Source of the DNA: Candidatus Omnitrophota bacterium
GTDB lineage: Bacteria; Omnitrophota; Gorgyraeia; JABMRN01; RBG-13-46-9
Length of the DNA stretch: 64,000 nucleotides
Direction of reading: 5' to 3'
Assembly (NCBI GenBank): GCA_013203315.1
Contig: JABMQJ010000026.1
Coordinates: forward strand, 56,511 to 120,510
Under the pieces are notes generated by a model. It had not been told where the DNA came from and searched no databases. It worked only from the letters and a program-made list of their open reading frames with translations. A program made the position numbers and the translations under genes. This document shows positions 1,169-55,559 of the stretch, piece by piece (position 1 is the first letter of the stretch; the number at the start of each line of letters is the position of its first letter).

Positions 1169-1220
1169 ACAAAACAGGCCTTGACTTACAAGTTGGGCCG
1201 TGGTAAAAATAAATGAGGTT

Positions 1221-3313: not shown

Positions 3314-3466
3314 CTATGTAGAGTTAAATAAAGTGCTTGAATGAAGACAACGAGCAAAACGTAAGATTTTCGACAGGCATTTTTTTTGTCAACTAACTAA
3401 AAGCTTTAAAAAAGTATTACCTATATGTATGATGCAAGTTTTACGCAAGTACTGGAGGAACCCAGA

Positions 3467-4181: not shown

Positions 4182-4270
4182 ATCTACGTGTTTTGAGTTT
4201 CGTATCTACGTCTTTTTTTATGTCCTGAAACTTAGGACATTTAAAAAGGGATAAATAAGGAGATCTACGT
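4182..4270 (+). repeat. Three ATCTACGT copies in the leader (4182, 4204, 4263) plus hairpin 4220-4240
   Basis: Read directly. The third copy lies between the AAGGAG RBS and the GTG start. Confidence 0.75.
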
Positions 4271-10200: not shown

Positions 10201-13200
10201 CAGACATGGCAGTTCGTCTTGTTTCAAGGGAGCGGCAAAAACCCCTTACACCGGAGGAAAGAAAAGAACTTGAAGACAAAATAGATGAAAGAGTAAGAGA
10301 ACAATTAGGCATTGAAATCACCGATGACGAAATAAAAATAGATGGGAATGGCAAAATACAAAGCGAAATTGCATTATTTTTCGGAAGAAACCTGAATTTA
10401 AAACCCGGCGCACAGCAGCCATCATTCCTGAGAGACTTCGTTTTTCTTACCGCTGTTAAATCCGGAAAATTCAGAATAAAAGATAAAGATGGAAATGTCA
10501 AAGAAGTGAATCTTAGTAAAAGGTATGAAGCGCTTACCGGTGAAGAAAAACAAGCATTCGATAGCGAACTTGCCGAGATATGCCGCGGCGCAGAAGATGA
10601 CCTGGTAAAATTAGCCATACACGATTTTCTTATACCATGGGCCGGAGAACGGCAACCCAATATAGTAGCTACGCTCTCTGCAAAAAGTGAAGAACTAATG
10701 AAGAGCCTCGAGGCGCGCAATGAAGCCATAATCGATCTTTTCGAAAAGAATTTGTTAGTTACAGATAAGGAAATGATAATACAAATGGAAGCGCCGAGCA
10801 TACCCTGGAGAGATCTCGGCAGGGTAGCTGCTACCATTGCCGGTATTTCCCTTGTTGGGGGCATCATTGCAGCGACCGGGGGATGTGGTGCATCGCCAGT
10901 ACTCAACCAGCCTGCCGTTGAACAAGCAGCGCAGCAAGCTGCGCAGCAAGTTGCAGAAGTACCGCAAGAACCAGCCTTGCCGCCGGCAGAGCCAACAAAA
11001 GCAACCGTACCTACCCCTGCGAAACAACCGGAAAAGCGTGTTACAAAACCTAAAGCAAAGACACCCAAAGCCGAAGTAGCAGAGGAACCCGAGGTAGAGA
11101 AACCCAAGGTATCGGAAGGATTAGATGCATTAGATGTATTATTGCCACAGGTACCGGGAGAAGGCGAATGGCTAGATAAATTAGTGCCAGAGGTAGAACC
11201 GGGAGCAGCGATACCTAGAGCAAGAGTGCCAGAGATGGTAGAGCTGTCCGTGCGAGACTTCCATGAGAGCCTGTATGGTTTCCCACGGGATCAAGCCGAC
11301 GGACTTAAAGACACTCATTTAACACGCGATGATTTGAAGAATATCTTTTCAAGGCTTAGCGGAAGTGTCGGACATAATCAGTCGTGGGAAGGTGCGCTTA
11401 GTCAAACAACAATACATATGAACGGAGTTTTAAGATGGCTTCGTGATAACAACATAAAACCTGAACAAATTCCTATGCTCTGGAGCCGCATTCCGCGCAC
11501 AATGCTTACAGGCGACCAAGCGCATACGATAGACCAATTAAGCCCCGGATTTTTGGAAGTATTGGGCCTTGCAATGAGCTTTTACGCAAACGATATTGCA
11601 AGCCCCGCAAATATTGAGGAACGCGGAGGAAGAGCGCTTTTGGCGCAAAAAAGAAGCGAAATATTACGCGACCTGAAAAATTATATAGCAGGCGGAAACA
11701 TTATTGCGAAGCCGGGTTCGCGTGCCGCACGCTTTGAAAATATCCCCGAATCACGCCGAAGGCTTGAACTTGGGTGGAATAAATTTGTGACTAATAGCCT
11801 TGGATCGATAGATGCCGCAACTATGACTCTTTCCGATTCAAAGGACTTAAGAAGTGAACAGGAAAAGTTATCCCCGGCGCTTGATATTATACTTGGACGA
11901 CCGGTGAACCTTAGGAGTAAAGTTGATAGAAACCTACTGCAGACCCTCGCTTCCTTTGCAAAACTTAACGGAATTAAAGCAGAGGACATGACCTTGCTTA
12001 TAAAAGCCGGTATGCCATTAGGACAGCTTGTACCACTATTTCATAGTTCGGCTACAATATCAGAACAACAAAGAATCCAAGCCAATATGACCCAAGAAGA
12101 GATCAGCAGAACACATGCCCGCCATAATGCAATAGCGCTTAGCCGAGCTCGCCAAAAACATATAGCAAGGCTAGATAAGGCCAACCAAAGATTCCAGAGA
12201 AGAATGAGTACTCTTGAATCTCAAGGTCTTACAGGCCCACGAACAGAATACGTGCAGAGACAATTAGCAGACTTACAAAGCCAAATAGATGCTCAGCAAA
12301 CTCTCTTAGGTTATTGGATAGAAGCAGATAATTCCAAGTATTACTTCGAGAGGGAAATAAAAGAGAGTACAACATCACCTGGGGACATCAGGCAAGAAAT
12401 CGATGGAACCATAGCCGCAAGCAACAGCATAATATTGTTAAACGAACATTTAAATAATTTCCTTAGCATAATAAAGGCGACGTTCGAGAATCTCCGTCCG
12501 GGCGAGAGCTTGAGCGATATACTTGCCGAGGGAGATACGGCGCAACTCGCTAGGCTCGGACGTGAAGCTTATGCGGTAAGAGCAAATTTTGCAACTATGT
12601 ACGAGGTCATTTCAAGAGTCGCTGACCAATACGAGAACCCGCTAGCAAGCGCACTTTACTTTGCCTCCCAGAACGGGAAGGCTTTTCCGGGCACATATGT
12701 TGATGAAAATGGTGCTAGAAAAAAACTGGCTTATTTTGTGGAAAAAGACGGCCAGCGCCCGATCATAAAAGTTATTTATGACAATGAGCCGGAACCGCGC
12801 AGGACCTATGTAGACTGCGAATTTGATGAAAGAGAATGGCGAAATATAGAGGCGTCGGTAAAAGGTGAACGTGACCCCAACCCTACCAGGGATATTAACG
12901 ATCCAACCAAGCCCGGTAAGCTTCTTGAAAAATTAGGTCCCGCTATGGAAATAGAAGAAGGCATAGAGGGAATTCCCGAACCCGTAATCGGCTTACCCGG
13001 GGGTATAGGCGACTTGGGCGTGACTGGTGAAGATCTCTTACAGCCCGCGACACAACCCAAAGTGCAAACCGAAGCTGAAAAAGCGGAAGAAGCCCGTCTG
13101 GAAAAGGTGAAGGGAGAGATTGCAACTAACTTTGACCTAGCAAATAAGGCACTGGATGGGGCAACTGAGGCCCTTAACGCGGATAACCTCGAAAAAGCGG

Positions 13201-16200
13201 ACGACGAAATAGAAAAAGCAAAGGCTTTATACGATAGACTTGTAAGATATTCCTTCCGGAATGAGCCGGTAAAGCCCGGGGACCTTAAGGCGCTAAAAAA
13301 CAGGATATCCGAAGCCGAGACTCAGCGGAAGGAAAGCCGGATATATAAGAGAGTACAAAAGCTTGAAAAAAGGTTATCTAGAATCTCAATAACCATAGAA
13401 AACATACGTAGAAACGCGAATAAATTTGAAAATGAAACGGACTATAAACGCGCGAAAGATATAATTGACGGCATATTCGCTTCTTTAAAGAAAGAATTTT
13501 CCACCGGGGAATTGGAGTATAAAAAACAAGAAATAGATGCCTTAAAAGTGGAGTCCCGGCTCGCCGATAGTTTTGCCAGGGCATTTTTATTATTCAAGAA
13601 AGCAAAACAGGATCAAGCAAAATTCGATGCCCAAAGGGAAGAAGCAAAGCGTAAGTACGAGGCGATAAAGGAAAAAATAACCAACGCCCCGCGACTTCAG
13701 GGACTTCCCCTTGCCCGGGGAATGGTGCACGTATTTCTGCATGGCAACGGCAGCCCCAGCCTCGCGCGATTTTTTAACAGAAACAAACCGAGGCACGGAA
13801 GATTTGACGAAGGCGATGTTATTGTAAGTGATACACCGGTACCCGATCATCTTAAGGGTAAGAATGTGGAATGGTATCGTTATAAAATAAGTTTCCTCAG
13901 GAAAGAAAAAATTCCCCTTAAGTCCGGCGATCCCAAAGCGACCCATGTTTCGGTAGACGGAAAAGAGTACTCGGTATATGGCCCTGTTTACATGGTATTG
14001 GAAAAGATAGAAAAAGGCAAAAAAACTATAAGGGTAGCGAACGATACAATTGATTTGATGAAGCTTGTAGGCACAGGGTATACACTTAATGATGAAAATG
14101 GAAATCCGCTGTTCTCAGAAGCCGTAGTAAAACTCGCCAAGGACAACGACTACGATGCGGCTGCGATACAATGGAATATAGATTTATCGAGACAGAGACA
14201 CGAAGGCATACGCCAGGCGAAAGAGAACTCAGAGGAGCATGTGGTAAGACTGATACTCGATTCCTGGCAGGCCCATGCGGAAAATCTTGAGATTGAAGAA
14301 GCGTGGGCGGAAATGCTTCGCACAATGTCCGAGGGCACAAAGGTTGAACTGGGCATATCAATAGGGGCCTATACAAAGTCGCTTCCATTTGTGTCGGTGT
14401 GGGCCGGTATTACCAGGATCATAGATAAAAGAAGAGATGCTTATGTCAGCCAGGGTTTCTGGAAATATTATGTTAAGATTCAAGAGGTTAAGAATAGACA
14501 GGTTAAGCGGGTAAGCAGGGCCCTCGCGGACCTGACTGAACTGGGAGAAGTAAGGGCCGAATTGACACGCCTCAAAGGCGATGAAACGAATTATAAAAAT
14601 CTCCTGAAGAAAGAAAGGGACAAAAAATCTCAAAGGGCAATAAGGGCCAGGCTGGCTTCTATCGGCGCAGAAATAGCAGGGCTCCAGGCCCGCGACAGCG
14701 AGTTAAGCGAAGGCGTTCTTACTGAAATGGGCGAAAAGCTTAAGATAGATGAGATAGTAATCGATCCTAATAGACGTCTGAGGAAATGGCAGATTAACCG
14801 GATTCTTGCTCAATATGGGGTAGACGCGGGCACGGTTTATCCTGTTATGCGCGCATACTATCTCAAAAAATGGGCTGAGGCCAAACAAAAAGAAGCAGAA
14901 GCAGGAAAAACACCTGTATATACCTCTAAATCCATCGTAAGCGGTTCTGCCAGCGCCGCCGGTTTTTATGGCGGCATATTCGCGAGCATGGATGCCAAAT
15001 TCGTAGATAAGGAACTGACCCCGGCAGTGGCTGATGTAATAAAACTACGGCAGGATGTAAATGCCAATTGGACGGCATACAATTCGCAGCAGAAAAAGAA
15101 AAAACTCGAAGTCATTTCTAAGGCGATAGACGAAGTTATAGATGCCTCGAATAGGAAAATCAAGAATCTGGCAGAGCGCAAAGCCGATGCGGAGAAGAAA
15201 TACAAAAAAGGACTTTTAACCTTTGGACAATACGACGAGGCGCTTATAAAACTGAGGGAAGCAGAAAAGGAACACTCCGCTATAGTAACGCAGGGAAGCG
15301 CAATACAATACGATTTATGGATGCTTCATGACGGCCTTGACAGACAGCTGGGAGACGCCGTTAAGCTCAAGAGAGAAAAAGGCGCAATAACCGCAAGTAA
15401 GTTCATGGAAGATGTGCTCAAAACATCCCGCGAGATTGGCGCCGGCAAAATGGCAGATGTAGATGTGCTGGAACATACCCGGCGCTTGAAGGAAGGGAAG
15501 GATAAAGGCGTAGTTACAATTGAAGGCGTTGGTGGCTTTGTAAGCACCGGCTCGGACGGAAAAGGTATTTCCTTGGGCGCGGGGGCATCAACAACCCTTA
15601 AAATCGATACCTCGCGGGAACAGAAATTAGATATATTGGCAGATACCCTTCTTATATCTGAATTAAGAAAAGAAGCAACGGAAGAAGACGCGGCCATTAA
15701 TGCCTTAAACGCACTCATTAGTTATAGGGGTATAAAGAAACAGACAGAATACGCGACCGCAGGGAAGAAGCATTACGAGGACTATAAAAAAGGCGCCGGC
15801 ACACGAGAAGAAAAAGCCGAAGCCGAAGGATATCTGGCTGACGCGGTTCTTAATTTGAGAGGAGCCGAGCGATGGCTGACATCCGCAATGAGAGAGGCAA
15901 TCACGTTAAGAGGCGGAGATTTTGCGAATGTTACGGATATAGATGACCCCACTGTATTATCCGGTATTATAGCCGAACTAAAGGTGAATCGTTATAAAAG
16001 AGAACTTGAGATATTAGACCTGCAGAAGAAAATTATAGAGGCCATGGCCACAATAATAGCCAAAGGAGATTCGTTCTCCCTGGCTTTAGGCCTTGCCTAC
16101 GCGGTTCAATCAGATGGTGGTTCCACGCTGCAGACGATCGGATTTAACATACAAATGGAATCGAATATATTCGGTCCGTTCTTACCCCTTATTATCGGTA

Positions 16201-22200: not shown

Positions 22201-25200
22201 GCGTATTCGATGTGAATGAATGGCTTGTAGGATCTGAGCTGGAAGAATGCATTACAATAGACGGGAAACCCGGCAAGCTTTTAGAGACATTAGAAGAGGC
22301 AGAGGTCATCGAAGAACTAGGAGAAGAGGGTGTGCCGGCGCTTCCCGCTCCAGAAGTTCCTGGACCCGCAGTCGGCGAACGCGGGCCAATAGGTGCCTTG
22401 GGCGCAACTAAACCGGCAGAAAAAGTATTGGCAACAACGCCGGATGGAACAAAAAAGTTCGTCCAGCGTCCGGATGGCAGTGTATGGCTAGTGGCGAAAG
22501 GAGACCCGAATCATCTTGAGATGTCTAGAGGAAAGACGCAAGCATGGGCGGACAGGAAAAATGCGCCACCCGAACCTCGCAGTGATATAAACCCGGAAAC
22601 GATAAGCGAGGAAGTAAGCGGAAAAACGGAATCTATCGCTGCAACGCTTGAAAAATATTACCCGGAAGAAATGAAAGCGCTTTCCGAAGTTATTACGCCG
22701 AAACAGTGGAACGAAATGTGGGCAGAAGTTTGCGAAGTTCATAGGCTAACCCCTAGAGGGGCCAAGGAGCATTTAGAGCGCGTAAATTATTGGTTGAATG
22801 AAATTCTTAAATGGGAAGAAAATAATGGTGTAAAAATTGACATTCCGGAGGATATGTACTCGCTTCTTTACGCCATTCGGCCGCTAAAAAATGAGGTATG
22901 GCCCATAGAGAAGGCGCTTCCCGGGTTACTGCGAAAATTGACCTATGTCGATTTTATGGCATCATTGGAAAAGCATAGGTTGTTATTTGATGCCCCGGTT
23001 CTGAAGCTAGCCGACGCAACAGTCAGGAAAGATCTTCGGGAGGTTTTCGTTCGTTTCTTCAAGATACTAAAGGACCATCAGAAAGGGAAGCATGACAAGA
23101 GTGCCATTTTAAGATTTAGAAGGGAAATAGATGATAGAAACGCAGTGATTGTTGATCTCGCATTACGGCATAATACCGGGGAGCAGCTAACTGGTGAGAC
23201 CGCTGCGCTTGAAAAAATCTCAAAACTTTTCCCGGAGTGGAAACTAAAGTATGGAGTGAGCCAGAAGGGTTTTCACGACTCTCATATATTGTTTTCATTT
23301 TACATGTTTATGGTAACCCAGGACCTTTCATCCGGTAAGATCGATGAGCTTATGCCTTTATTGCAGGCGCTGAAACCTTTTCTTAATGATTCCTTCGGCG
23401 AATACAAAGACATGGAATTAGGTAAGTTGCTAAAAACGCCGCGTGGCTTCGATCTTGACGGGGTTATACAAGTGTGGAAAACTCTGGGTGAGGACTTAAA
23501 GAAGCTTTGGGGCGGCGAGGTGCATAAGCAAATGCTTAGAGGCCTTGAACTTGACCGTCTCTTTGAGGCAGCACGGCTAATAGTAGAATATCACAGCGGG
23601 GGAAAAAGGATAAAGGATTTATCAGGAAAAGAGATACAAGAGATTCTAAAACAGACGCTCGGGAAGAAAGGCTACACGGGATTTCTTGCCAGGGTAATTA
23701 ATATTCAAAAGAAGAACGGCCTTACCCCGGACATGCATAAATCAATTGATTGCGCGAATACACGCAAGACACCGCCACAAGCCGAAACGGTGACAAGAAA
23801 AGACCTCCCCGGAAAACTACCGGGAGGAAAATATTACCTGAGCACGACCTACGAAAGCGGCTACAGGACCCCGGAGGAATATACCTTATATAAAGATGCG
23901 GAAGGAGAGACAAAGATAATAACATTTTCTCTAAGAAAAGACGGAACTGTTAGGATAATATACGGCAATGATGAGGCGGCTTCGCAAGTTTGGAAGGGCA
24001 AATTTAATAAGAATGCGTGGTTACAAGGAAAGGCTTTAAAAGATTGCATTACAATAGACGGCGAAAAAGGCCAGCTTTTAGAGGAATTAGGTAAGCCAGA
24101 AGATGTGGAAAAAGGTATAAAACTAGAAGAGCCTGCGGTGCCCACGCCCACGCCTGCGCCCGGAATAAGTGAACAGGTACTTGGACGTGCAACTCAAGGC
24201 GCAAAGAGCGCAGTTGCAGGCACCGGTTCACCTTTGACGAATTTTGTGATGATCGTAGGTATGAGTGCGATAGGCGTTGTAACCGACTCTCAACAAGCAC
24301 AAGAGCCCCCAGCGCAAGTGGCGCAAGTGGCACCGGCGAAGTCGGCGCAACCGGCGAAAAAGGCGGCGACGCCGCCGGCGCAAGCGAAAAAGCCGACAAC
24401 GCAGAAGGCACAAACACAACCCGCAGCGAAACTGAAACCTGCTGAAAAAGCTAATCTACTCATGAACTACAGTGGGCCAGATGGAAAAGATTCATACGGC
24501 CGTAATGCCGGAGAAAATTTCTGGGGACATGTTGGCATAAGCGATCCTATACAGGCAGAAAAAACAAGAAAAGCTTTTCGACACATGAAAAAGCTGGGCA
24601 TCGACTCCGTGAGAATGGGATTAGTAGCCGATGGCCGCTCACTAATGGACGAAAATGGAAAGGTTGACCCCCAAAAACTTAATAAGTTCATGGAGGACGT
24701 AGAGGCTTTACTTAAAATTGCAGAGGAACAAGAAATCCAAATAGAAATAGAATTTTCCCTTATCGACCATCTTATAGCGTATAAGGGCAGAATAGATAAC
24801 GGCGTCCCAATTTTTGGTAGGGATGAAGTAATAAAAGACGCTGCAGGATTTGTTAAAGACTTCCTGACACCATTCCTTCAGAAATTCGGGAAACATAAGG
24901 CGATAAAAGGAATCGACATTATAAACGAACCGGAATGGATCTGGATTAATACCCCCGTTACAAAGGACAAGGTAAAACAATTTATAAGAATATGTTCGAA
25001 AGCCATAAGGAAATGGGCTCCGGGTAAAACCATAACAGTCGGTGTTAATACCGAGTATACCGGAGAAATGGCCGCATTAGTTCGCGAAGGCGTGCTGGAC
25101 TACGTAGCCATTCACCACTATGAGGATAGGTTCAGAAGGAAAAAAGCCGACGGCACATTCGAGAAAGATAATTTCGCGACATTAGAACGCTTCGTAAAGG

Positions 25201-37200: not shown

Positions 37201-40200
37201 CGGAAGAAACAGATCCTGCACTTTTGGCGCATATGAGTACAGTTATGGAGAAGGCTAAGCAGAACGCGGAAGAAGATGCAGCTCTTGTTGGTGTGGCTGC
37301 GATGATTGTTGATGCAGACGGGAACGAAGTAGTTATAGGGGCCCAGTCAGAGTCAGCACTTCCCTCAAAACGATTTGATCATGCTGAAATCAATACACTT
37401 ATCGCAAGCCGTAACGCCGGCACAGATTTATCCGATTGCACCTTACTTGTTTCCCTTGAACCATGCGACGGGTGCGCAAAGGCAATAATTAATAGCGGTA
37501 TCAAAAAAGTAGTAATAGCGACATTGGAGCCGAGCCAATGGATATTAGGAGAGGGCGCTCGCGCACTATTATTGGCAGGCATAGAAGTAGTTATCGCATC
37601 TAAACCGGTTCAAAGAGACGCTTTGGAACATTTTACTGAAAGAATGCATGTATTAGGAAGAGAAGGAGAACTTGCTATTTCAGTTGAAGAAGCTATGCAA
37701 GTTAATGATCAACCGATTTCACTATGGAAATCAACAGGTGTGGAAGACTTAAAAGCATTGGCGAGGCAGTCACTCGATAATCAGACAGTTGATACCCACA
37801 ACGATAGACATGATATATATGAGTTCGATAGACTAGTAGCGCACATTTTAAGAGACAGTTTGCAGCTTGATAGAGATAGATTACCGCAAATAGTTACGAT
37901 TAACGCAAATTCCTTTGATAACTCTCTGGGATTAGAAGAAGTTTACGCAGAAAGAAATGTAAAAAATCAAATACTATGGACAGAACAAACTTATGACCCA
38001 TCAAGGCCACATTCTATTATACTTGCCGGAACAGATGAAAATTGTCTTAATATCTTATCCCAAATCGAACGCCAAAATCTAGCACCCCTTGGGCATGTAT
38101 TTATCATGAGAGGTTTCAAACCCGGCCAGCCGGTTACGCTTACAAGCGCTGCCGACTTCAAAGCGCGACAACTTGCAGAGCAACCACCGCTTCGCGCACC
38201 GCCGCTACCGGCAATACCACACGTGCTGCTCGAGGCCCACCGTGGGCTGATAGAAGGCACGAGCGCCGAGGAAAATACGGCTCTTGCACTACAACAAGCT
38301 GCAAACGACCCAAGAACAAATGCGATAGAGTTCGATGTGCAGCGCTCAAGAACCGGAGAACTCGTGATTGCTCACAGAGGCGGCGCTATCCAAGATGCTG
38401 ATGGCAACACCAGAAATATTGCTGATCTCTCGCCAGAAGAAATCCACGCTATTGACCCAAGCATTCCGATACTTAGAGACGCACTCGATACTATCCTGAT
38501 TCCATCCGGAAAAATTTTATTTATAGACATGAAGGATTTCAACTTGGAAGGCGACCAAATAAACGATTTCGTGAACCAAGTAGTGGAATTAATTCGAGAT
38601 CGTCAAATCACTAACCATGTAAATATAGGTTCCTTCAATATAGATATTTTACGAAGAATACGGGCAAGGCTCCCTGCGGTTAGAATAAATTACTTCGGTG
38701 ATAGTGAAAGAGAGCACCCTACGCCGACTCCAAGCACAATGGATCAAGATATCCAAAACGCCCGCGAACTTGGCGCAGTATATTTTTCAATAGCAACCGA
38801 TGATTTTACAGGTGAAGGTGAGCTTGATGAAGCTATCGACAAGGTGCACGCAAGCGGCCTTTCCTCTGATCTGTATTTTAGAGAAGGGGTCCCTGCCGGG
38901 TTCGAGAACGAAATAGCCACTTTACAAGAAAGAGGGCTCGGTATTGTCAGCACAACTGATAGCGGTACCCTCGCAGAATTTACGCAGCCCACACTCCAAA
39001 CAGAAGGAAATGTATTGAGTATACATCCTGATGCAATCCTTGGCATGTATCGTGGATTCTTCATAGGCCATGTCAGGAGATTTACAGGTATTGCCGGTAT
39101 ATTAGGCCGGGAGCTTAATCTTACTGAGGCACAACAGGCGCTGTTGGAGCAGGCCTCACGGCTTCATAATCTTGGTGAAGATGTAAGGGGCGCGTACGAA
39201 GCAGAATTTTTTGATTTGTCCAGTCAAGTGCGTAACGAGTTTAAAGAAGATGGAAAGCCGGGAGTTTCCATAAGGAGGGCAGTCGATCTTCTTATTTCGC
39301 GTGAGATGTCCCAGGATCCTGAAACTCAAGATCAGGAACTTGTATCGCTAGACGCAGATACCAGATATCGATTATTCAGAGCAGGCTTATTAAAGATTTT
39401 GAATAAAGAAGAGTTAACCAATGTAGAAACGGAACTATCGCATTCATTGTGCAATGCCGCGGAGAATAGACTCAGAATGTTCGGTGAAAGGGGCATAGAT
39501 CTATCTCAGGAATCCCGGGATCTAGAAATTTTGCTAAGATACAACGACGACTACATAGGATTTGAAAGAGACCTACCGCAGTTTGAAAATGAGCTTACCA
39601 TGCCGGTTGAAGACATGAGGCTTCTCATAGCCATAATGTTCCTTGCTGATGTCCTGGAGATGGGAAATAATCGGTATGTGCAGCGCGAACAAAGAGGCAG
39701 AGACATTGAAAGCTTGCCGGCAACAATTGATTTTATAGAGACACGTTTAATCGCTGACGAGCGCATACAGGAAAGCGCCCCTCTGGAGAGAGCACTGGTT
39801 CGTTTAAGAGCGCTTATAGCAAGAGAACATCCGGGCTTGGTTAGATTGCTGCTTCAGGCAAGGGGGACTACCGAGCTCATGCCGGAAGACCGCCAATACA
39901 TACAGACACTACGCCAGGAAGCGCCGAAAAAATCTATTCTCGAAGTTTCCTCCGGCGAAATACTAAATCACTCACGTGGTTATATAAGGGATCATGTAGG
40001 AAGGGTAGCCCGAATGGTGCTCCGCGTCGGACAGGCCATGAACTTGAGCGACCAGGAAATAAATATTTTAAGGTGTGCGGTGTATGGCCACGACGTAGGT
40101 ATTTACACGGTACCGGAAGTCGATAAAAGTTTACGCGAGATGGGAGTAGATTTTGCAAGAGCTAAAACGATGGAGTATGAAGCCTTTATGCAGTACGCGG

Positions 40201-43200
40201 CTGGTATAAAGAGCGCTACCGAAGAAGGCGCTGAATTAACAGAAGAGGAAAGAATCGTTCTCGATGACGTATGCAGGCACGGCGCAAACTTTGCTGACTT
40301 CCTGAACGAAAGGTATCAGTTACCAGCAGAAGTTGAAATATTAGTTAGGGGTCATTTTAATCATCAAACATTCTTGTCAGATATAGCAACGAGGCGCAAT
40401 GAAATATCTATTCCGCTGGCCAGATTAGAACTTCTGTTATCGATAATTGTTACGGTGGATTCATTTGAAAGCGGAAATAATAAATTTAAACAAGCACAAT
40501 ATAGAGGAAGCGAGCCCGAGTCATTTACCGATTCACTGGGAACTGTTGAGGTGCATGGCAAAGATGGGTTCGTAGTCAGAATGTGTAGGGATTGGGGCAT
40601 AAAAGATACAAGGCCGCAAGATGTGCTAAGAAAATTAATAGTTAATAGGGACCCCGAAATACTAGGAGTCGTAAGAGAAGCGCGGGAAGCGGCGTCAATC
40701 GACGAAGCCCTTACGCCCGCTGATTCGGAATTTATCACAGCCAGCCGCCGAATTATGCCTCGTCTGCGCAGGGTAATTAGAGCAATAGTAGATTCTGTCC
40801 GTGACATATTTGAACGACTAAGAATAGAAATAGTCATGCGCCGGATCGATCGAATGATAGTAGACATAATTGCCAAAGGCGAGTTACCGGTAATAGTAGC
40901 AGACATTGATGGCACGATAACAGAATCAAACATGCCGGTTTCCGATGAAAGCTTAGACGTGATTATTGAACAGGCGCGACTTGGCGTGCCGTTTATGATG
41001 TTAACCGGTATCAGCGCTGCAACTGCCCGCAAACAATTATTTGACCCACTCATAGGACGCCTTAATGAACGGATAGATGTCGATAAAAGCGTTTTGATGA
41101 ATTGTATTTTTGCAAGCGACAACGGTACACAGATCTACATATATGATGAAGAACTGAATAATATAAGGTGTGTATTTAATATTAATATGAGGAAGTATTT
41201 ACCAACCGGAAAATACAACCAAATCTTTAAAATTGTCAATTCATGTATTCGCCTGTTTGACATGCGTACGATGCTGCAGGAGAAAATGGGCTGGCAATTT
41301 AACGATGAGGAATGGGAGAAATTCAGAGCAACTTGTACTGTAAGGAGAAAGATAGAGGGGGGTGTCAGTCAAATAACATTGATGGTGCTAAGCAGGAATG
41401 CTACCCATGAACAAAAAGAAGAATTCCAAGCAAAAGGCGGCGAAGTGCTACGAAACGCATACGCAGATTATATAAATAGTGAATTTGAAAGACTTGGTAT
41501 AGATGTTAGAGCAAAGGTTTCGGGGTTAAGCTCAATAGACATAAACCCTGCAGGAATAGATAAAGGCTGGGCCATAGAAACTATCTCAAAGCTCTGTAAT
41601 TTAACCCTCGATAGCATAATATTTATAGGTGATGCATTTGGTCTAAGAGACAATGATACCCCTGCGCTTAGATTTGCCGAAAAGGGCATCAATGTCGGCG
41701 CGCGTGTTGCAAAATCAACACATAAAGGAAAAGAATTTCTGCAGCTACGGGGTACCGGGCCCAGAGGATTTAACAATGTAATAAGAAGCGTCATCGAATA
41801 CGTTACAAGATTCCAAAGGACGTCAACTAGGCTACCCATTGCTTCAGCATTGATGGCAAGATTAGAAGCAGGACCTATCCAGATACAGGATGCAGGAGCA
41901 GTGATAGCGGATGGAGATCTAAGAGATATGCAGCATTTACTGGATACACATCTCCAGATCAGTTTTGGAGGGGCGATTGAAAATTACGAGCTTTTCACTC
42001 AATCTTTCCTGAATCAATGCGTAGCCGTTGGCCTAGCGGTTAATGATAAAGAGTATATGAAATACCTGGCAAACATTACTTACGATGCTGTAGGAAACAC
42101 ATCGGAAGGCCGTGACGAGGCGCATCTTCCCGTTGTTCCTGTGCATTTATCAGCAGGAATGGGGCAACTCGAGTTTTTGATTGCCTGTGAAAAAAGACCC
42201 GACCTGGATAGCTTTATAGTAACAACCATGGATAACAGTAACATGCCTATTGAAGGCCTGCTGACGCTCGAATTCAAAGTCGCAAATCAGGATACGCCTA
42301 TAAATGTTTTTGTTTCGCGTATTGATCCACATGCTAGGCGTCTGTCCGGCGAAAGGGATCCCCAGTTACTTGCTGCCTTGGAAGAATTAAAAGAATTAGT
42401 AAGCGATAGAGTAGTGGACACAACTCCTGGCGTACAGGCCACGGGTAGGGTGTTAACGAACAAGTTGGCCAGGCTATTTGATAGCATATTAAGGTCCAGT
42501 TTCAAAACCGGAAGGGCTACTGAGATTCCGGTGGACGAAGGTCGTGGAATTAACTGGAGCGAGATAAGAGAAGGGTTCCAGTTTGTGACACACGACGAAC
42601 TTATGGAAAGCCTGGATGTCCGTGGCTTACCTGTTAATATACATCCGGGTCGTGGAGGGGAAACACTGGGCCATGGCGGCCTCCAGGCTCACATAGATAG
42701 CTATATATATGAGAATTTATCAGATGAAGAGCTTAAAACTCTAGCAAGACACGAATTAGCCCACCTTGACATTTTCAATGTAGAACGTATGTCCGAACAG
42801 GAAAGACAAGCGATTGAAGGCACAGATGCCTATAAAACTTGGGAAGCATGGGTCGAAGCAGGAAAGCGTGAAGGTCGAGCGCAAGAGACATTTGTTAATA
42901 ACCTCCCGGGGTGCAATGCAGTAGCGGTAAGCAGAAAAATAGAGCAGCTAGCGCGCAAAAAGAGACGCCAAAACCAAAGAGTAGCAAGCCAAGTGCTGGT
43001 CGCAACACCCGAAACAGTCGAACCCGCAGTCGCAATGCCTCTGACACCGAGCGAATATGCACGCGTATGGTCTCCGGATATAGCCACACACGATGAGATA
43101 GTCGCAGCAATTAACCCAACTCTTGAGACAGCCATTACGGCATTAAGCGGTAATGATCTTGATCCAATAACAGAAGTATTAAGGAATATCGCTGCTACAA

Positions 43201-46200
43201 CAAACCCGGATGAAATAAGCGCATTAGAAGAAGCAATAAGGCAATTATCACGAAGGTATTCAATTTGGTCAGCCTATCTCGGCCAAAGAATTGACGAAGC
43301 AAGAGATAGCCTTTCCGGGAGCGAAAGAAACCGCGTTGACGCACTATTTACAAGAGCAAGAGAAAGCGTAAGAGCTGCTCAGAACGAACAGTGGGCAGTT
43401 ATAAACGCCGGCGGCGTAGGAAGCCGATTCTGGCCTGTTGGATATGAGAAAAAACCCAAACAGCTTTTGTCGTTTGAACCGGGCGAACCTTCACTTCTTC
43501 AATCAGCAGTACTGCGTCAGGTGAATCCCGATAACCCCAACTGTATAAGTCCGGATCATGTCGTGATTGTTACAAATGCTAATATCGTAGACGAGGTTTG
43601 GGAGCAGGTAAAGGACATAAAAGTAAATGGTGTAGGAATTCCAAGGGAAAATATTCTAGGTGAACCTAAGGGGTTGAATACGGGGCCTGCACTAAGGCTA
43701 GGCGCGTTATTTATTGAACAAAAAACCGAGGGTGGACCCGATGCTATTATACGAGCCCTGTATGCTGACGCTGTTATTCCTGATCATGTATCTTTCAACA
43801 AGGTACTAGCCAATTCCGCTGATGTTGCAAAGTTTACTAATGTTTATGTTGAAGTAGGTGTAACGCCCGGAAGAGAACTAGATGGAAGTCTTGTAGTGAA
43901 TCCAAAATTAGGACATCAGCAACTAGGAAAAGACATAGGCGGAGACGCTAATTATCTTCTTAAGAGAGTTGAGAAAGAGGTAAAGGAAACCCCCCAGGCA
44001 ACGCATGATTATTACAAGGGTTTAGTTGAGAGTGGTGCTACATGGAATAGCGGTTGCGTAGTAGTCAGAGCAGGTGTTCTGACAGACATGATACAGACAA
44101 TGCACCCCGAGGTAGAAGAGGTATTTCAGAAATACAAGGATCGATTAGGGGAACCAAGCGCCCTTGAAGAATTATATGATGAACTTGAAGAAAAGGGTGC
44201 AAAGTTGCCGTACGACACTTTCTTTTCAAAAGATGCCGTTGAAGGGGAATACCTAAGATTTGGTGTCGTAGTAACAACGGGCCTTGAGAAGGACAACTGG
44301 GATGACGTAGGTAATCTCGCAGAATCTCGCAGAATGGCCAAAATTCCGTCGGAAGACAATTTCATTGCGCAAGGTAATGAAGAAAACATAACATTTGAAG
44401 AAGACACTGAAGGCAATACTGTTTATGCAACAGATGACGGAACAAAAGTCGTTTTACATAGCGGAGTAAAAGATTTAATAGTTGCTTACGAGAGAGGATG
44501 TAATTCACTACTTGTATTGCCAAGAGATGATTCTGCAAGAGCAGGCGAAGTCGTAAAAGAAATAACTAAGCAAAGTTCACACTATCACAGGTTGCTTCCC
44601 TATGCAACGGGCGAAAATCCGCCCGCGACCTGCGGTGAAGCCCACGAACAAGATGAACACGAAAATACTAAAACCGGCGATGCAATTTTTGTAAGCGATG
44701 ACACCCATAATTGCCGTCTTACCACAAGCAAAGGACTTATCGCTGCGATTAATCTAACCGGATATCACATCGAATGGGATGCGGGGAAAAACGAAATACA
44801 TGTTTCTCTTGAGAAACCAGCCGAACCCGCAGTCGCCATGCCTCCGACACCGGGCGTATATGCAGTGTCTCCCGAAAGAGCAGAAATAAAGACAACGTCT
44901 GTTACGGCTAAGCACGATGGTATTTTACCATGGCTGGAAGAGGGGATAGCAAGCGGAGCAATAGGTGAAAACAGAGACCTTATCGTTTTTGATTCTCACT
45001 TGGATGTTTTTGCCTTCTCATCGGGAAATGACGGCTGGATAGCTACTATCAGGAATACAAATATGAAAGTCGGAAAAATATATGCTGTTGTGCCTACAAT
45101 GTGGGGCACTGTTCATTCGCTTAACGCAACAGCTATGAATTTGGCAAAAAGCCTGAATGTGGAAATTGTATTTGGCCTCGAGCAATTACCACAATTTGAT
45201 GAACCGGTTACAGTTTCATTCGAAAACGACTTTGTAGACATAAATCTAATTCATGCAACTAAAAATGAAGTAGCCGGAAGACAACGTGAAGTTGCTCGCG
45301 CACTTTCCGGAAGAAATATTCAGATAGAAGGTTTCCATATATCAAATGAAACAGAGCCGGAATACGCAGACGGTGAAGATAAAGGCTTTATAGTGCGCAA
45401 TATGTGGGCTACGCTTGCTGAGGAAGGTTATGACTTAGAGAAGAAGGACACATTCACAAGATTACGCGCCCGAAACCCGGCCAAAAGAAAACAAGCTGTA
45501 GCTGATTTAAAAGAAGACCACCCGCTTCTTACAGAAGAAATAGATGCGCACCTTGGAGCACTTCCTATATCGGGTAAGACAATATTAGACAGAGCAAAAG
45601 AAACAGGTAGGCCTGTCCTTGCATGTAACATTGATAACGGCGAACTATCATCGCTTCAGATACGTTCAATGATGCAGGCAGCGCTCGACATGAACGCATT
45701 CATCATGTTTGAAGTAGGACCTGCTGCGCTACTCACTTATGCTGATGGCAAACCCCAGCTTCCTGAATACTGCGCGCGCGAGGCATACAAATTATACAAA
45801 GAAACAGGAAAATCCGTTACATACGCTGTTCACCTTGACCACAACCAGATAAACAGAAAGAAATATAATACAAGAGGCGAAAGAAGAAAAGCTGTCCGGG
45901 AAGCCGTTGACCGCGCAAAGAGTGCCCTTGCCGTAGGATTTACATCTTTTGCGACTGATACATCTACATTAACCGACATCGACAAAGACACGGTTAAAGA
46001 TCAGTTGCTCCCTGTAGTTAATACGGCCACAAGGATTCTTTCAGCTATATATGATGAAGCAAAGGCTCTTGGAGTAGAAGTAGGTAACGAAGGTGAGGTC
46101 GGCGACATAGGCACTTCAATAAGCACAGTTGAAGACGCCGTGCATTATTATCAGGAACTTGTTAAGAAGTTAGGCGCTCTCTCAAAGAGAATGGGTAAAG

Positions 46201-49200
46201 ACTTCACGAAAGAGCCTCTTATAGACATCATAGCACTAAACATTGGCACTGCCCACGGATATACGTTTAATGAAAACGATCATTTAGAACCTTACACGCC
46301 GGGTAGAATAAACGTCGAACGCGCAAAAGAAGTCCACGAGGCATTTAGAAAAATGGATCTTGATGTAGGTGTAGCATTACACGGCTTCTCAGGTACGCCC
46401 ATTGAATTTGCCGAAGGCTTTGTAAATACAGGCATAGCGAAGGTAAACATAAACACAGACTGGCAGGCGATCGTATGGAAGGTTCTCTATGCGTACTATC
46501 CGGATCTTTACAGGGAAATCTTTGACCTGGCCAGGGCATCAATACCGGAGAAGAAAAAGGCGGGCCTTGTCACCGATGATGCCAGCTATGACTTTGAACA
46601 CGCCAGAAACCGCATCATGTTCGGCTACGCTAGAAAGCTCTTCCGCGAGAAAAAATACCACCCACTTCTCGCAAGGCTTACTAACGCTCTAAGAGACGGC
46701 ACTAATACGTTAATCGTTGCACGGGAACAAAGATTAGAAGACCACGTAAACATACAACTAACCCCCGCAACACTCGAGGACCTAGCAAAGGATGATGGCA
46801 GTTGCGCCGAAGTTACCTCGCAGGGCGCTATCGACATGTTAACAGGTGGCCGCATTACCGAACTCATGACGGCTCTCGGCGAAAAAGACGTAGCAAGCGA
46901 TATTGAAGTCGACAGGGAAGCTGAACTACGCCTGCAGGATTGGCAGATTGCTGACTTAAGAGAGGCTGCTTCCGAAGAAAAACCAAGCCCGGCCACGAGC
47001 TTTATTGTAGAAAGAATATTTGCGCTCTTTGGCCTACCTTATAGGTCTACCAAAGAAGCGCCGATAGTCGAGACAATATTTATGAAGTTAGGACCGGCGT
47101 TTGGCACCTTGGGAGCGCTTACGTACTCCAACCCTAACAACCCACTTCTCAATCTTGGTATCTTTGCGGCAGTGCTTGCAATTTCCTTGATATTGTTTGT
47201 GCTTTCGCACGCCTTTAATAAAGAGGAAGATAAATATACATCCGCCATAGAGGCAGCGCGTACAACTCTTTGGTTTGCAATACCCGTTGGACTGATAACA
47301 CTTGCAACTCAGAATATCTTTGTCTTTTGTAGCATCGCAGCTGTTGCAACTATTCTTACCATAATGTCACACATCAACATCAATATCGAAGCGCTAAAAG
47401 CAAGAAGGGCTACTGCGACGATAGGCCAGGGGCCGCACTCTATGGGAGATTTAATGAATACCGGAAAACAAGGCATTGAAGCTCTGAAAGAAAGGCTGGA
47501 TGATACTAGTATCTCCGCTAAAGAAAGGGCGCGAATAGCGGATTATCTGTTAAGAACCAATACCGGCTCTCATGAAGACAAAGCCAAATGGCATTCTACT
47601 TTGGTTGCAGCAGAAAAGGCTATTTACGGTCCGAAAACAAAGGTTCCTAGAAATTTCATGGCCGACCCCTATAAAACCTGTATGGCGTTAGAGAGAATAG
47701 GAGATTTAGACCTTACTGAGCACCTCTGGGATGTCTTGAGATTATTTTTCGCCGTACAAAGAGAAGCAGTAAAAATTCATCGAGAACACAGGTATCATGA
47801 AATAGATACAATAAAGAATATCAGAAATTCATGCATATATGCTTTAAATAAGCTATCATCTGAAAATATGAAAGATGCTTTATTTGGAATTACCATGAAT
47901 GATGTAAGCGCCGAAGCGGTACAAGAGATGCAAGAAGTAGTATTACCGGCTTTAGATATTGTAGATGGGGTATTTACTGAAGAAGATGATGCAGAGATGC
48001 AAAAAGGCCTTAATCCCAATTTGGCTAACAATATTCGACAGGAGATATTTGCAAGTTTAATTGCCGGGGAAAGGGTGAATTGGAGTGCCATGGCTCGAGA
48101 AATGGATGGCTGGGATTTTCCGGAAGACCCGGACGCGGCAAAATGGATAAATGAAACAGCCAAACCGAGATGCAATCCTAGGATCACAGAATATCTGAAA
48201 ATGCGCAGGAATAGAGGTGATGCGGGAATACTCGTTTACTTTTTAGCGGAATCTAGCGTAGGAAGTCGTGAGGCGCTGAGTGAATTAAGATCAGAGATCG
48301 AACAAGGACAAGTGCCTGACAGGTTGAAGTACAGAGCAGCGGCAGCTATACCGCACTTAAGCTTAGGAGACAATGATGTTGAAAAAGCCACACGCGTTTA
48401 TGAAGAAAGTGATTCTTGGCCCATAAAAGGACGGGCAATAGTCATGTTAGGCCTTATAGGCACAGCTAAGGCAGCAGACGCATTGACGCAAATAGTAAAA
48501 GGTATTACGCTGAATCAGGCAGGCGAACACAAGAGTAAGTTATCCAAAGATATGAATTACGCGATATTGAATTTAGATCTGGTATGCGTAGAACCTATAT
48601 TAAAAGATTTTGATAGCTACGATCCGGAAGTTCAGTTACTTATCATTGGAAGCCTTGGAGCGATGAAGACGCCTTTTGTTGTTGAAAAGGCGTTAGGGTT
48701 TTTGCAGCATAAAACCAACGTAGATGAAGAAAGAGATGTATGCATTATAGCCATCGCCTCTATAGGAGTAATGCCAGATACGGTTTTAGATGAATTTAGG
48801 AAAATGTTACACCCAAGCTTCAATATAAGCGATAGGCTTAGAGCCTCTATAGTTAAGGCGTTGGGGAATTCTACCAACATAAATGTGCTGCCCTTGCTCT
48901 TCGATGAACTTGACCGCTATGATCCACAGGTAGACCTGCATTCATACTTGCATGTAATCGATGCGATTATCGAAGTTGATAGTCCACAGGCAATGAATGT
49001 TTTGGTAAATGCCCTAAATAGACTTAACAAAATAAACTTCGACGATAAAGCACTAGCGACACCAAAGGAACGCAGAGAACACAAGATAGCAGGCTTTGTT
49101 CTTAATAGATGTCTTGGCGAAAACATAGATTTGCTTATCGAAAGCCTGGATATGAGAAGGATTTCCATGCACGATTTTAAAGAAACACTAAAAACATTTT

Positions 49201-52200
49201 ATGCCTGGGAGACCACCTTGCTTGGCAAGAAAATGTCTGGTGAGGCATGGGATGAAGTTGCTTTGATGAACTTATTTGCTTATGACCTTGCTGATGAAGA
49301 GTTGATTAACAGGATGATAATATTTTCAGAAATGAGTAAAAAAAGCATTTATCCCACCAACACTTTACTTCGCAGCGCTTATGACGCATCGGTAAACCAA
49401 GGTGTATTGGATTCTTCGCGTTTAGATGAAATGCTTGATTCATGGGCCAGAATACAGAAGAATTTTTACACACAGGAATCTAGTTTTGATTCACAAAATA
49501 GATTTTATTTTATGCTGGGATTCTCGACATATGCCCACCTAAGGCGTTATGCGTTAGAAAAAAGCTGGGCAACTCTTGTCAAAAAAGACGATACCGATTC
49601 CCCTGAAGGTAGTTTAGTGCTATGTCATTTATACAATGATTACAAACAAGCAGTCGCTAACGGCAGCGCTAATGTATTTGGACCCATAGGAAGCATGTCT
49701 GCCAGAGAGAGTAATGCTTTAAAAGTAGCCCGTTATGAACAAAGACAATTTTTGGAATGGGCCATGGCGCTAAAAAGGAGAGCAGATTCATTAGGCAGGG
49801 ATCTCGTGATTGTACCAAATATAGTTTATGGTCATTTTTTGACCGGTTCGATAAAAGACGAATTACGCAAAGCCGGCATAGAAATACGTGACGCGGGAGT
49901 CAGTTCCGAACGCGCTGATGATGCTTGGAGTTATGATAACCGATTCCATGTTAAGACTCAAACGTTCAGCATGCGTTTTTTCAGAAGACTGTTGGGTATA
50001 GACGGAAAAAGGCCTATAGTAGTCGTGCTTGACGGCACAAGAGAATTTTCCAGTAGGAACGTCCCCGGCAAGTTTGTGCGCCTACCCGCAGCGCTAATGC
50101 GCGTATATATAGATACATTTATTGCAATAGCTAATGTTACTGCCCAGGGCTCGATTGAAAACTACTACCCTTCTTTCGCAAATTTGCGGTCTTATGACTA
50201 TATCCGAACTTTGCTAACTAGAAAGTCATTCAACAAGCTTGCAGAGAAGGTGCGAATCGCCGCCGGTGAGAACGAAATAACGGATGGAGAAAATTATGAA
50301 ATCGCACATTGGAATCCTTTGGGATTACCATTACCATCGGGTCGCGAAGGAAGAGAATGGCGGGGTTCACACGACAGGTATAATAATGAGGGTCCGATAT
50401 GGCCGATTGGGGTAAACGATATCGATGGTCCTGCTTTGATATTAGTTAATCTGTCTATGGCGCCTCATGAGATTCCGAAAGAAGCAGGAATCTCTGGGCA
50501 AGGAATCGTACGCTCCGATTTTGATGACGAAGAGATAACCGAAAGCGTTAAAGTAGTTTGCGAAGGCACTCCGGGAGAAAAAGTAGGTCCTCCAAGTGTG
50601 GTCGGAAATTTAGACGAAGCTAACTACGTGCCCGAGGAACATAGATATTTGCAGCAATTCAACGAAGCTAATGTTCCTATGGTTCGTTATACCGAGTTTG
50701 TAGAGGCACCGGAAGGCCCCGCCGAAGCGGAGAAGGCGCCAAAGACTCTTGCTGCGAAGAAAAGACCCAAAAGGAAGGATGGTGGATTTGTCACTCTCGA
50801 ACTTCTTGTGGGTATGGGCGGCCTTATAATATTAGGTATACTAGCCATTGCCAGCATCGCCGGAGTTGCGGAACCCGGCGTCTTAATCGATGCATTGCCA
50901 GCTGCTACAGGAGTAGCGGAACCCGGCGTCGTAATCGATGCATTGCCAGCTGCTACAGGAGTAGCAGCGAGTACGCTCTTCGGTATGAGCATGGGGACGA
51001 TTGGCTTGGTAGCGGTTGCCGCTCTTATTACGGTAGCGGTTACAGTCTTTGTTATGAAACGAGTGCGAGGACGCCGCGAGATAGGGCCCACGGTTCACTT
51101 GGAAGAATTGACGACAAGATATAGAGAATTCACCGGTGATATGGACAACATCATTGATTCATTGGCTGGCATCGTTGAGCCATTAACGAGCGTAGAAACA
51201 GGGGATCCAGAGGTTCAGGGTCGTCTTCATGAAATGGTACAAGACGCGCGTAGAATGCACCGTGACTTCATAACTAACGGCAGGGACGTTTTTGGTGAAA
51301 CCTTAAAAGACCTTGAAGAATCATCGAGAGTAGTTAGTGTACTCTCGCCTCAGGATAGAGCCCATGTTAGCTATGCTTTATTTTTGAATAGATCATTTAA
51401 TATAGCACACGAACTTATAGAAGGCGTAAGGCGATGGTCTGGAACCTCGCTAAAAGCTTGCAAAGCTGTTCTTTCGCCAGAGGATTTTGAACGTGCAGAA
51501 GAGGCTCATGCTGCACTTACTGAACGATTAGAATTAGCAAAAGAACATACAGATGGTTTAATAGCTTCAATAACACCAATTCTTCCGGCGACAGAACCTA
51601 AACGGGGCCCGGTTGGACGTTTCTTACGAAGCGTTCCTGGCATAGGCAGGTTTTTCACGATAGGCGCCGCTTTCTTATCCGTCATCGGAGCTGCCAGTCT
51701 TGCGGACGCTGCGCCTGTAGCAACAGAAACTGCCGGTGAACTCGGCCGAGAAGCTTTACCCGGAATAGTCGGCGGAATCAGCATAACCGCTGCATTACCA
51801 TATGTGGCAGCGATTGCTGCAGTTATTGTTGTTGTTATTATTGGCGTTGTAATTATAAGGAAGAGGAGGGTCTCCGCCTTACTAAGCCAGGCAAGAGAGC
51901 ATATTGAAAACGGCAGGTATAGCGAAGCGCTAGCAATCGTAAATGAGATCTCCAATAATGAAGAGGCCGAGGAGATAGCAAGCGAAGCTAACGAAATGCG
52001 TGAAAGAGCAGAAAGGCCTGTTATCGCTATAAGGAGCCTTAGTCATGGCGTTGCAACAGCAGTCTTACATCTATTGACCTTTGCCACCATGCCCATGGAT
52101 ACCCCTCTTACTACCAGTCGGCATAGCCAGTCTGCAGTCGCGATTCTCAGACAGCTGCACCAAAGGGTGAGCGATTTACACGTAAGGACGGTCGAGATAT

Positions 52201-54831: not shown

Positions 54832-55275
54832 TTATGTTTTTTTACACATTTCACCTCTGCCTTTCTGCGCTCTGATATATGTGCGCATATTTTCTATTTC
54901 ATATTTACTGATTTCATTATATCCATATCGTCTCGCCCAGAAACTCTTTCGTTCATCCACAGGTTTCTGCCTGTGGAATTCTTCGTCGGAACGAAACTTT
55001 ATGAAACGTGGATTCCCCATGCGGAAGCATGAGGTTTCGTGTATTATCTTTGCCGATACGGATTTTAGTGTTCTGACTATTGCAGACAGTTCTTTTTTGT
55101 CGACAGCCTCTACTAGCATGTGTACATGATTTTTATCAGTTTGTAATTCTAATACTTTGTACTTATGTCTTTCGATACATTCTGTAAATATATCTTTGAC
55201 AAATTTATCTAATCGCCCCTCTAATATCGCTTTCCTGTACTTCGTCACAAACCAAATGTGGAAAAACATAAGCAC
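54832..55275 (-). mobile_element. tnpA: IS200/IS605-family Y1 (HUH) transposase, no tnpB
   Basis: HIWFVTKYR, DKNHVHMLV (HUH), LKSVSA, FWAR, TYIRAQ (catalytic Tyr). Likely start ATG 55269. Confidence 0.9.
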
Positions 55276-55469: not shown

Positions 55470-55559
55470 TACAGAAACTCAGGCTACAGACAATACTCTA
55501 TGCATTTTTTTTGGGAGGATTTTAAGACTATTTAAAAAGTAGAACTTGGGAGTTTTTAA

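Follow-up and report, generated by a model that had tools for sequence, protein, structure and literature searches.

Signal-peptide-like hairpins in a giant Omnitrophota protein are probably uncleaved membrane anchors

Giant proteins with many transmembrane (TM) helices have been described in Omnitrophota as 'Archaeovorin-type', their topology being uncertain (10.1101/2023.11.21.568195; 10.64898/2026.06.07.730766). The accessible text of the 2023 preprint by West-Roberts et al. raises the cleavage of these proteins as a question, with C39 and S8 peptidase domains as candidates and cleavage points stated as unknown, and reports their predicted topologies as unreliable (10.1101/2023.11.21.568195). 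In the 2026 preprint DeepTMHMM is applied to 916 long proteins, internal signal-peptide calls on later chunks being suppressed as artefacts, and the word stem "cleav" is absent from its accessible text (10.64898/2026.06.07.730766). The DNA analyzed here, called the window, is a stretch of 64,000 nucleotides (C25:56511-120510) from a Candidatus Omnitrophota bacterium genome of 1,505,222 bases in 32 contigs, rated 97% complete. It carries a giant open reading frame (ORF), which starts at a GTG codon, with AAGGAG 6 nt upstream:

4269-54101, + strand: giant ORF of 16,610 aa, 49.8 kb in a single frame with no internal stop.

An initial annotation of the window held that three internal segments of this protein, hereafter sites (a), (b) and (c), are type I and type II signal peptides cut by the signal peptidases of the cell. 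At a probability of about 0.6, the three segments are instead topogenic anchors of a giant multi-module inner-membrane protein, most likely uncleaved. The sequences and their charge asymmetry, the layout of the hairpins, their presence or absence in homologues and the insertion and peptidase genes encoded are observed, whereas the topology, the insertion route and the lack of cutting are inferred.

The ORF is a member of this published class. It shares with the Archaeovorin-type the Omnitrophota origin, a small genome of 1.5 Mb and many TM helices, 27 uncharged hydrophobic cores being detected in a hydrophobicity scan with a 13-residue window. HEAT, FBP-aldolase, PMM/HAD-like, NTP transferase and glycoside-hydrolase domains are likewise found here, as are neighbouring giant ORFs with PPDK, GNAT and SecA_DEAD domains. 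Homologues of the ORF are giant ORFs of Omnitrophota metagenome-assembled genomes (MAGs); among 5.8 billion clustered proteins searched, the closest was P0042, of 7,356 aa, from a Candidatus Omnitrophota bacterium MAG and 50% identical in the best stretch. In contrast, the accessible text of the two preprints focuses on proteins of >30,000 aa, and describes a divergent SecA_DEAD domain in 'most' of them, whereas neither SecA_DEAD nor C39 or S8 domains were found in the 16,610-aa ORF by Pfam (E <= 0.01). Cleavage by C39/S8 peptidases is proposed in that text, unlike the signal peptidases considered here.

The segments in question, and a further hairpin of the same protein, are the following:

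10806-10886, + strand, frame 0: site (a), aa 2180-2206, WRDLGRVAATIAGISLVGGIIAATGGC, made up by WRDLGR, hydrophobic residues aa 2186-2204 and TGG-C2206.
10887-11138, + strand: stalk of about 85 residues rich in Q/P/A/K/E by composition, aa 2207 to about 2290.
30081-30263, + strand: helix aa 8605-8623, predicted N-out/C-in, and a strongly basic loop (RRRLPPRFRP...RGLRRAGK).
30240-30326, + strand, frame 0: site (b), aa 8658-8686, RGLRRAGKWIGLPLVLVLLVAGESFGAPV.
30264-30449, + strand: hairpin (b) as read from the sequence, with first helix (h1) aa 8666-8683 (WIGLPLVLVLLVAGESFG), loop 8684-8705 and second helix (h2) 8706-8727, then RGLYR.
50802-51056, + strand: hairpin aa 15512-15596, found by the hydrophobicity scan, with a first helix of 23 residues and without a strict -3/-1 site.
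51600-51719, + strand, frame 0: site (c), aa 15778-15817, ending in GRFFTIGAAFLSVIGAASLADAAPV.
51651-51857, + strand: hairpin (c) as read from the sequence, with h1 aa 15795-15814 (FFTIGAAFLSVIGAASLADA), loop 15815-15840 and h2 15841-15863, then RKRR.

All three sites read in the giant ORF exactly as the initial annotation had quoted them, (a) being followed by the Q/P/A/K/E-rich stretch, (b) and (c) each by a short loop and a hydrophobic helix with a basic end. The hydrophobic stretch of (a) is 17-19 residues long. In (b) the 12 residues preceding the 14-residue uncharged run WIGLPLVLVLLVAG have a net charge of +4, and ESFG|APV follows; the loop has 22 aa, two of them Asp, h2 has 22 residues, and the exit RGLYR is basic. 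In (c) a net charge of +3 in 12 residues precedes an uncharged run of 18 residues, with a core of about 15; the loop has 26 aa and a charge of -3, h2 has 23 residues, and the C-flank RKRR a charge of +4. The candidate cuts, SFG|A in (b) and ADA|A in (c), the latter also leading into APV, have small -3 and -1 residues and a residue other than Pro at +1. Absent from the initial annotation, the hairpin at aa 15512-15596 has the same layout as (b) and (c). Its loop, predicted to be periplasmic, contains a perfect-register tandem of two VAEPGV(L/V)IDALPAATG units (50865-50960, + strand), and the (E/D)ALP motif recurs in the loop of (c) and in that of one hairpin encoded by contig C11 of the same genome.

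Several parts of the protein are relevant to the sides of the membrane on which its modules reside:

24561-25076, + strand, aa 6765-6936: GH5 cellulase-like domain (Pfam).
30777-36653, + strand, aa 8837-10795: conserved multi-TM module, 51% identical to P0042 over the stretch.
37173-47144, + strand, aa 10969-14292: TM-free stretch by the scan, housing the next five Pfam domains.
aa 10991-11084, + strand: dCMP deaminase (Pfam).
aa 11324-11531, + strand: GDPD (Pfam).
aa 12209-12477, + strand: HAD / PMM-like (Pfam).
aa 13043-13350, + strand: NTP transferase (Pfam).
aa 13769-14076, + strand: class II FBP aldolase (Pfam).
52530-52922, + strand, aa 16088-16218: HATPase_c, within a C-terminal histidine-kinase-like module (Pfam).

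Flanking charges indicate N-in for (a), (b) and (c), with C-out for (a), and N-out for the helices at aa 8605-8623, 8706-8727 and 15841-15863. By these charges aa 2205-8604, a section made up by repeat modules and GH5, are placed outside, and aa 10969-14292 and the kinase-like end inside. No TM-grade segment resides in aa 10969-14292, and the enzyme domains of this stretch are of cytoplasmic type, with cytoplasmic substrates. Site (a) would thus be an N-in/C-out signal-anchor, whose flexible Pro/Ala/Lys/Glu stalk may lead into an extracytoplasmic section, about aa 2205-8604, and the helix at aa 8605-8623 would close this section of ~6,400 aa. The h1 segments of (b) and (c) may be the first helices of hairpins, each with a positive N-flank, a short helix, an acidic loop of 22-26 aa, a longer helix and a basic exit. 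Inserted into cytoplasmic linkers, the hairpins would staple cytoplasmic modules to the membrane, leaving the side of the flanking domains unchanged; insertion may proceed through YidC/Sec, as with other short-loop hairpins. Cleavage is not needed to explain the hairpins, because with even-numbered hairpins, cut or uncut, the cytoplasmic domains on either flank stay on one side.

Helical hairpins cut by a signal peptidase have a well-known example in the M13 procoat, a protein of 73 aa with an N-terminal signal, the cleavage of which by leader peptidase is proven. Hairpins (b) and (c) resemble it in the positive n-region, the short h1, the small residues at -3 and -1, the acidic loop of ~20 aa, h2 and the basic C-flank, and differ in being internal to a chain of 16,610 aa and in that cutting is here only a candidate process. 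Internal signals are cut by the host signal peptidase in viral polyproteins (flavivirus, bunyavirus), and the cytochrome b/c1 precursor FbcH of Bradyrhizobium reportedly provides a bacterial precedent. The idea of an internal n/h/c signal following a membrane-anchored upstream product is common to these systems and to the cutting proposed for the giant protein. A literature search found no paper on bacterial giant proteins processed internally by signal peptidases.

With the procoat as a model, (b) and/or (c) could be substrates of signal peptidase I (SPase I), LepB cutting after SFG8683 and/or ADA15814 once the hairpin is inserted. The chain would mature into separately anchored proteins, the upstream piece retaining h1 as C-terminal anchor, the downstream piece beginning with a short periplasmic stub, followed by h2 and a cytoplasmic module. 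This alternative is tentative, and clearly less probable than uncleaved anchors. It draws on the positive n-region, the h-region of 14-18 residues, the small residues at -3 and -1 and the Ala at +1, as on the procoat-like succession of short acidic loop, second helix and basic exit. Features of Sec-type SPase I sites, among them an h-region that is short (about 7-15 residues) compared to a TM helix of 20 or more, are accordingly found in (b) and (c), save for N-terminal location, the two h1 segments starting at aa 8666 and 15795 of 16,610. The accessible text of the 2023 preprint leaves the cleavage of the giants open and states the cleavage points as unknown, which gives room to this alternative (10.1101/2023.11.21.568195).

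How often such a look arises in ordinary membrane proteins was assessed in the same genome, in which 1,344 ORFs were called by a crude greedy method; the hydrophobic-core rules, as several of the readings of upstream regions reported below, are crude or by-eye procedures of our own. The controls (n=226) were internal hydrophobic segments with a positive N-side, taken from ordinary proteins that have at least four cores. A loose -3/-1 rule holds in 124 of them, a strict rule in 44 (19%), AXA in 7, and the strict rule combined with an uncharged run <= 18 in 13. Among the ten internal segments of the giant ORF, the strict rule holds in four, AXA in two, and the strict rule with a run <= 18 in three. 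The combined feature is thus more frequent in the giant protein (3/10 vs. 13/226, Fisher p = 0.023), the strict rule alone less distinctly so (4/10 vs. 44/226, p = 0.12). The frequency of the strict motif in ordinary, presumably uncleaved polytopic helices favours the uncleaved reading and speaks against cutting, as does the hairpin at aa 15512-15596, which has the same layout without the strict motif.

Isolated hairpins lead to a less uniform picture. The strict rule holds in 3 of the 4 found in giant ORFs of this genome, compared to 5 of the 43 hairpins of ordinary proteins (p = 0.013), a result which argues for SPase I cutting and counts against uncleaved anchors. Two of these hairpins reside in a 5,219-aa ORF of contig C11 (C11:19929-35589, - strand), and both have first helices ending in PGFA|A, again in line with cutting. 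They are related to each other (z = 3.7), and for this reason were also counted once, which lowers the figure to 2/3 (p = 0.056). Hairpin (b) does not count as isolated, the helix at aa 8605 being no more than 40 residues away. In thirteen giant ORFs from nine contigs of eight related genomes, the strict rule holds in 5 of 23 hairpins vs. 5 of 43 controls (p = 0.23), and this lack of enrichment does not favour cutting; nor does the fact that the data had been seen before the criteria were fixed. A home-made cleavage matrix, derived from the N-terminal candidates of this genome, separates the classes too poorly to be reliable (cross-validated AUC 0.65); in it (b) ranks at the 94th percentile of negatives, (a) reaches the 81st, and ADA|A of (c) no more than the 46th. 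Altogether, a signal-peptide look beyond chance is weakly supported. Hairpins (b) and (c) do share APV after the candidate cut, as initially annotated, but the tripeptide occurs in the giant protein at chance frequency (4 observed vs. 3.8 expected) and is missing in both homologues of (b), which again weakens the case for cutting.

The short h1 and the small residues at -3 and -1 are kept in all three close (b) sequences, the exact residues and APV being changed. P0042 reads KWLGLPAVIFALMGNAGYA|ADI at this place (GYA|A), G258 reads KLIVFVTFFISALIVASGVDA|SFK (VDA|S), and both continue with a loop and a second helix. The retention of a short h1 with GYA|A or VDA|S is a further point for SPase I cutting. 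Conservation of the cleavage residues, anticipated in the initial annotation, is found only in part, small -3/-1 residues being present at (b) in both close homologues, APV being lost and the Cys of (a) being retained in one of three homologues. By eye, in the 300 aa read upstream at 10 related loci, a (b)-like hairpin was found only in L013, P0042 being the other close homologue; L014-L017 and L019 feature a single helix followed by basic residues where the hairpin would sit. Distant homologues of the adjacent membrane module, in 9 genomes, similarly show by eye a single helix and basic residues, or other arrangements, and no hairpin. Region (b), 441 aa long, was found in 1 of 41 related genomes, and in none of the proteins of 1,473-4,205 aa. 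None of the 145 pattern matches retrieved in a metagenome scan with alignment was related, and a scan of genome contigs gave only two loci already known. An AlphaFold2 model of aa 8640-9400, built on a 3-row alignment, is too poor (mean pLDDT 37.5) to show if h1 of (b) is packed into the TM bundle.

Hairpin (c) is even more restricted. The corresponding region, 421 aa long, is present in 1 of 41 related genomes, that is, in its own genome only. When aa 15480-16178 were compared, without a profile, to 1.84 billion representatives, 41 matches (E <= 0.001) were obtained, none covering (c) or the hairpin at aa 15512-15596; every listed best-scoring stretch begins at query position 367 or later. 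The two genomes with the closest homologues gave generic HATPase matches only, and all 7 loci found in a metagenome scan for the (c) hairpin match the kinase region only. As (c) has no homologue in these searches, its conservation has no term of comparison, a further weakness of the SPase I alternative. Since homologues mostly lack the hairpins, (b) and (c) look like recent lineage-specific insertions into linkers. Their derivation one from the other as duplicated copies was rejected, likeness not exceeding that due to composition (z = -0.22).

In preceding a DHp-like + HATPase_c module, hairpin (c) recalls two-TM sensor histidine kinases. Ordinary kinases among the matches (P0004, P0037) feature a signal-peptide-like, uncleaved TM1 at the start and then a second TM. 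The kinase-like module which follows (c) is conserved at the C-terminus of the giants P0002, P0022 and P0023, and is present also in P0001 and P0006. By eye, no hairpin is found in the 260 aa upstream of the module in any of these five nearest homologues, unlike in two-TM kinases; (c) was therefore not inherited as a kinase anchor, and its origin as TM1/TM2 of a sensor kinase was rejected.

The genome encodes one Peptidase_S26 (LepB-type), one Peptidase_A8 (LspA), Lgt, one YidC and a canonical SecA. The Lgt (PF01790, 221 bits) and LspA (PF01252, 136 bits) genes are adjacent on contig C14. Such genes are general, 10-12 of 14 control genomes being positive. The presence of LepB, LspA and Lgt is necessary for the signal-peptidase idea, but true of most bacteria; the single LepB and YidC genes are compatible with the cutting of (b) and (c).

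Other observations weigh against uncleaved anchors. Only 14 residues separate K and E in h1 of (b), and h1 of (c) has 15-18 residues; both are shorter than the partner helices (22-23), and fall in the range typical of cleaved signals. In SFG|A and ADA|A the -3 and -1 residues are small and canonical, and the two (b) homologues keep both the short h1 and small residues at these positions. Moreover, the proposed topology is not self-consistent at the N-terminus, where a further helix is found:

4437-4493, + strand: N-terminal hydrophobic segment, aa 57-75, then DITWAQGG (from the sequence).

This helix and (a) are both N-in, and no convincing helix lies between them. P0042, in addition, lacks a helix equivalent to aa 8605-8623, so that the side of the upstream region would flip relative to the model. 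The motif found after the N-terminal helix, DITWAQGG / QQIGWTQ(G/D)G.PVW, recurs across many Omnitrophota giant ORFs, and is followed by a ...INIQDAHASLSAQ... domain. Its carriers include the window (4437-4520), the ORF starting at 55560, P0022, P0043, G003, G308, G290, G412 and G051, with conserved W at -2 and Q at +1. The motif may represent a cleavage site, or else belong to the domain that follows.

Site (a) had been likened to a lipoprotein signal. Hydrophobic segment, Cys and tether are indeed present, but the strict lipobox [LVI][ASTVI][GAS]C does not fit A-T-G-G-C, with T at -3. Relaxing the pattern to a permissive lipobox of PROSITE type (six uncharged residues, [LIVMFWSTAG]x2, [LIVMFYSTAGCQ], [AGS], C), a single match is found in the 16,610 aa, VGGIIAATGGC at (a), and Cys is scarce in the protein (70/16,610 residues, 0.42%). 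It could be imagined that C2206 is lipidated by Lgt and that LspA cuts in front of this residue, a lipid-anchored extracytoplasmic section following. The uniqueness of the match, the rarity of Cys, the presence of LspA and Lgt genes and a disordered tether after the Cys, as in many lipoproteins, would fit an internal lipoprotein signal of this kind. Homologues of (a) were found in 3 of 40 relatives (G003, G007 and G020, with open frames of 9,518, 1,115 and 8,997 aa, respectively), and all four aligned sequences feature K/R, a hydrophobic Ala-rich stretch, acidic residues and a low-complexity acidic/Pro-rich linker. G007 has a Cys at the same place (LLNGC), a point for lipidation; G003 and G020 have none, and yet keep segment and linker. 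The downstream section ends in the helix at aa 8605-8623, so a lipid anchor would add little. Internal processing by Lgt/LspA is not known to have a precedent, and none was found, though no literature search was aimed at it. Lipidation of (a) is highly improbable.

A fourth signal-peptide-like segment, not listed in the initial annotation, precedes the GH5 domain:

24213-24452, + strand: segment aa 6649-6672 (...FVMIVGMSAIGVVTDS|QQ; VVTDS|QQ), found by the scan, and a Q/P/A/K tether to aa 6728.

The block made up by segment, tether and GH5 (24213-25076) is absent as a unit from the colinear homologue P0042, and looks like a secreted-enzyme precursor inserted in frame. Some of the segments might accordingly be relics, brought in when modules that carried N-terminal signals of their own were fused in frame, and no longer inserted or processed. 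The fourth segment is plausibly the best fit, as its hydrophobic residues number only 13-14 and the section around it is predicted to be extracytoplasmic already. Among proteins of 281-895 aa, the GH5 block had no free-standing homologue, a weak argument against relics since only the 8,000 best word-sharing candidates were scored. The conservation of (a) in 4/4 and of (b) in 3/3 close sequences argues for a present function, and as an account of the segments the relic origin is improbable.

Internal translation starts were also considered, and rejected, no in-frame start preceded by a Shine-Dalgarno (SD) sequence being found before the internal sites. The sole start with a partial SD upstream of them is M2173, with a weak, badly spaced AAGGA.

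The multi-TM module at aa 8837-10795 is the best-conserved part of the protein, with invariant stretches such as YPPDQQR.DVMP.FYTQGPEYYMAHTPG. Two Pfam searches covering it gave no match, and its relatives are giant ORFs of 9 other Omnitrophota genomes, among 400 other genomes of the phylum searched. Two more domains were detected in the giant ORF:

aa 934-1086, + strand: HD domain (Pfam).
about aa 14685, + strand: HEAT (HEAT_2; Pfam, 28.3 bits vs. a cut-off of 27.7).

The next ORF, from 55560 to the window end, carries GNAT, MbnB-like and PPDK_N domains. The 10-mer ATTTAAAAAG is identical at 4239-4248 and 55530-55539, 21-30 nt 5' of the GTG starts of both giant ORFs, which open with the related (M)N(A/T)WR. 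An ORF for an IS200-like Y1 transposase (54835-55275, - strand; PF01797, E = 4.9e-22) lies between the two. An ECF-type sigma-70 factor gene (3425-4057, + strand) is found directly 5' of the 16,610-aa ORF, preceded by a UvrD helicase (1200-3236) and, at 1-639, an M48 peptidase fragment. The same contig carries, ~39 kb upstream of the window, another giant ORF of 5,848 aa (C25:234-17781, + strand), which contains a second SecA_DEAD domain (C25:4069-5391, 162 bits).

Whether Omnitrophota giants exist as one chain or as cut pieces is an open question in the accessible text of both preprints (10.1101/2023.11.21.568195; 10.64898/2026.06.07.730766). The hairpins provide three or four concrete candidate sites for a different, housekeeping protease. 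That giant Omnitrophota proteins are true bacterial polyproteins, with procoat-like hairpins between modules cut by the SPase I of the cell at candidate sites such as SFG|APV, ADA|APV and PGFA|A, is unlikely. If cut, the protein would represent a bacterial counterpart of viral polyprotein maturation; a 50-kb gene would give rise to several enzymes, each with a separate anchor, and to a kinase-like protein, all in fixed stoichiometry and at one membrane site, and the hairpins would supply the cleavage points that the literature calls unknown. If uncut, topology-neutral hairpins would staple the cytoplasmic enzyme modules of a giant chain to the membrane. Either outcome helps to draw the membrane topology of these giants, which current predictors get wrong.

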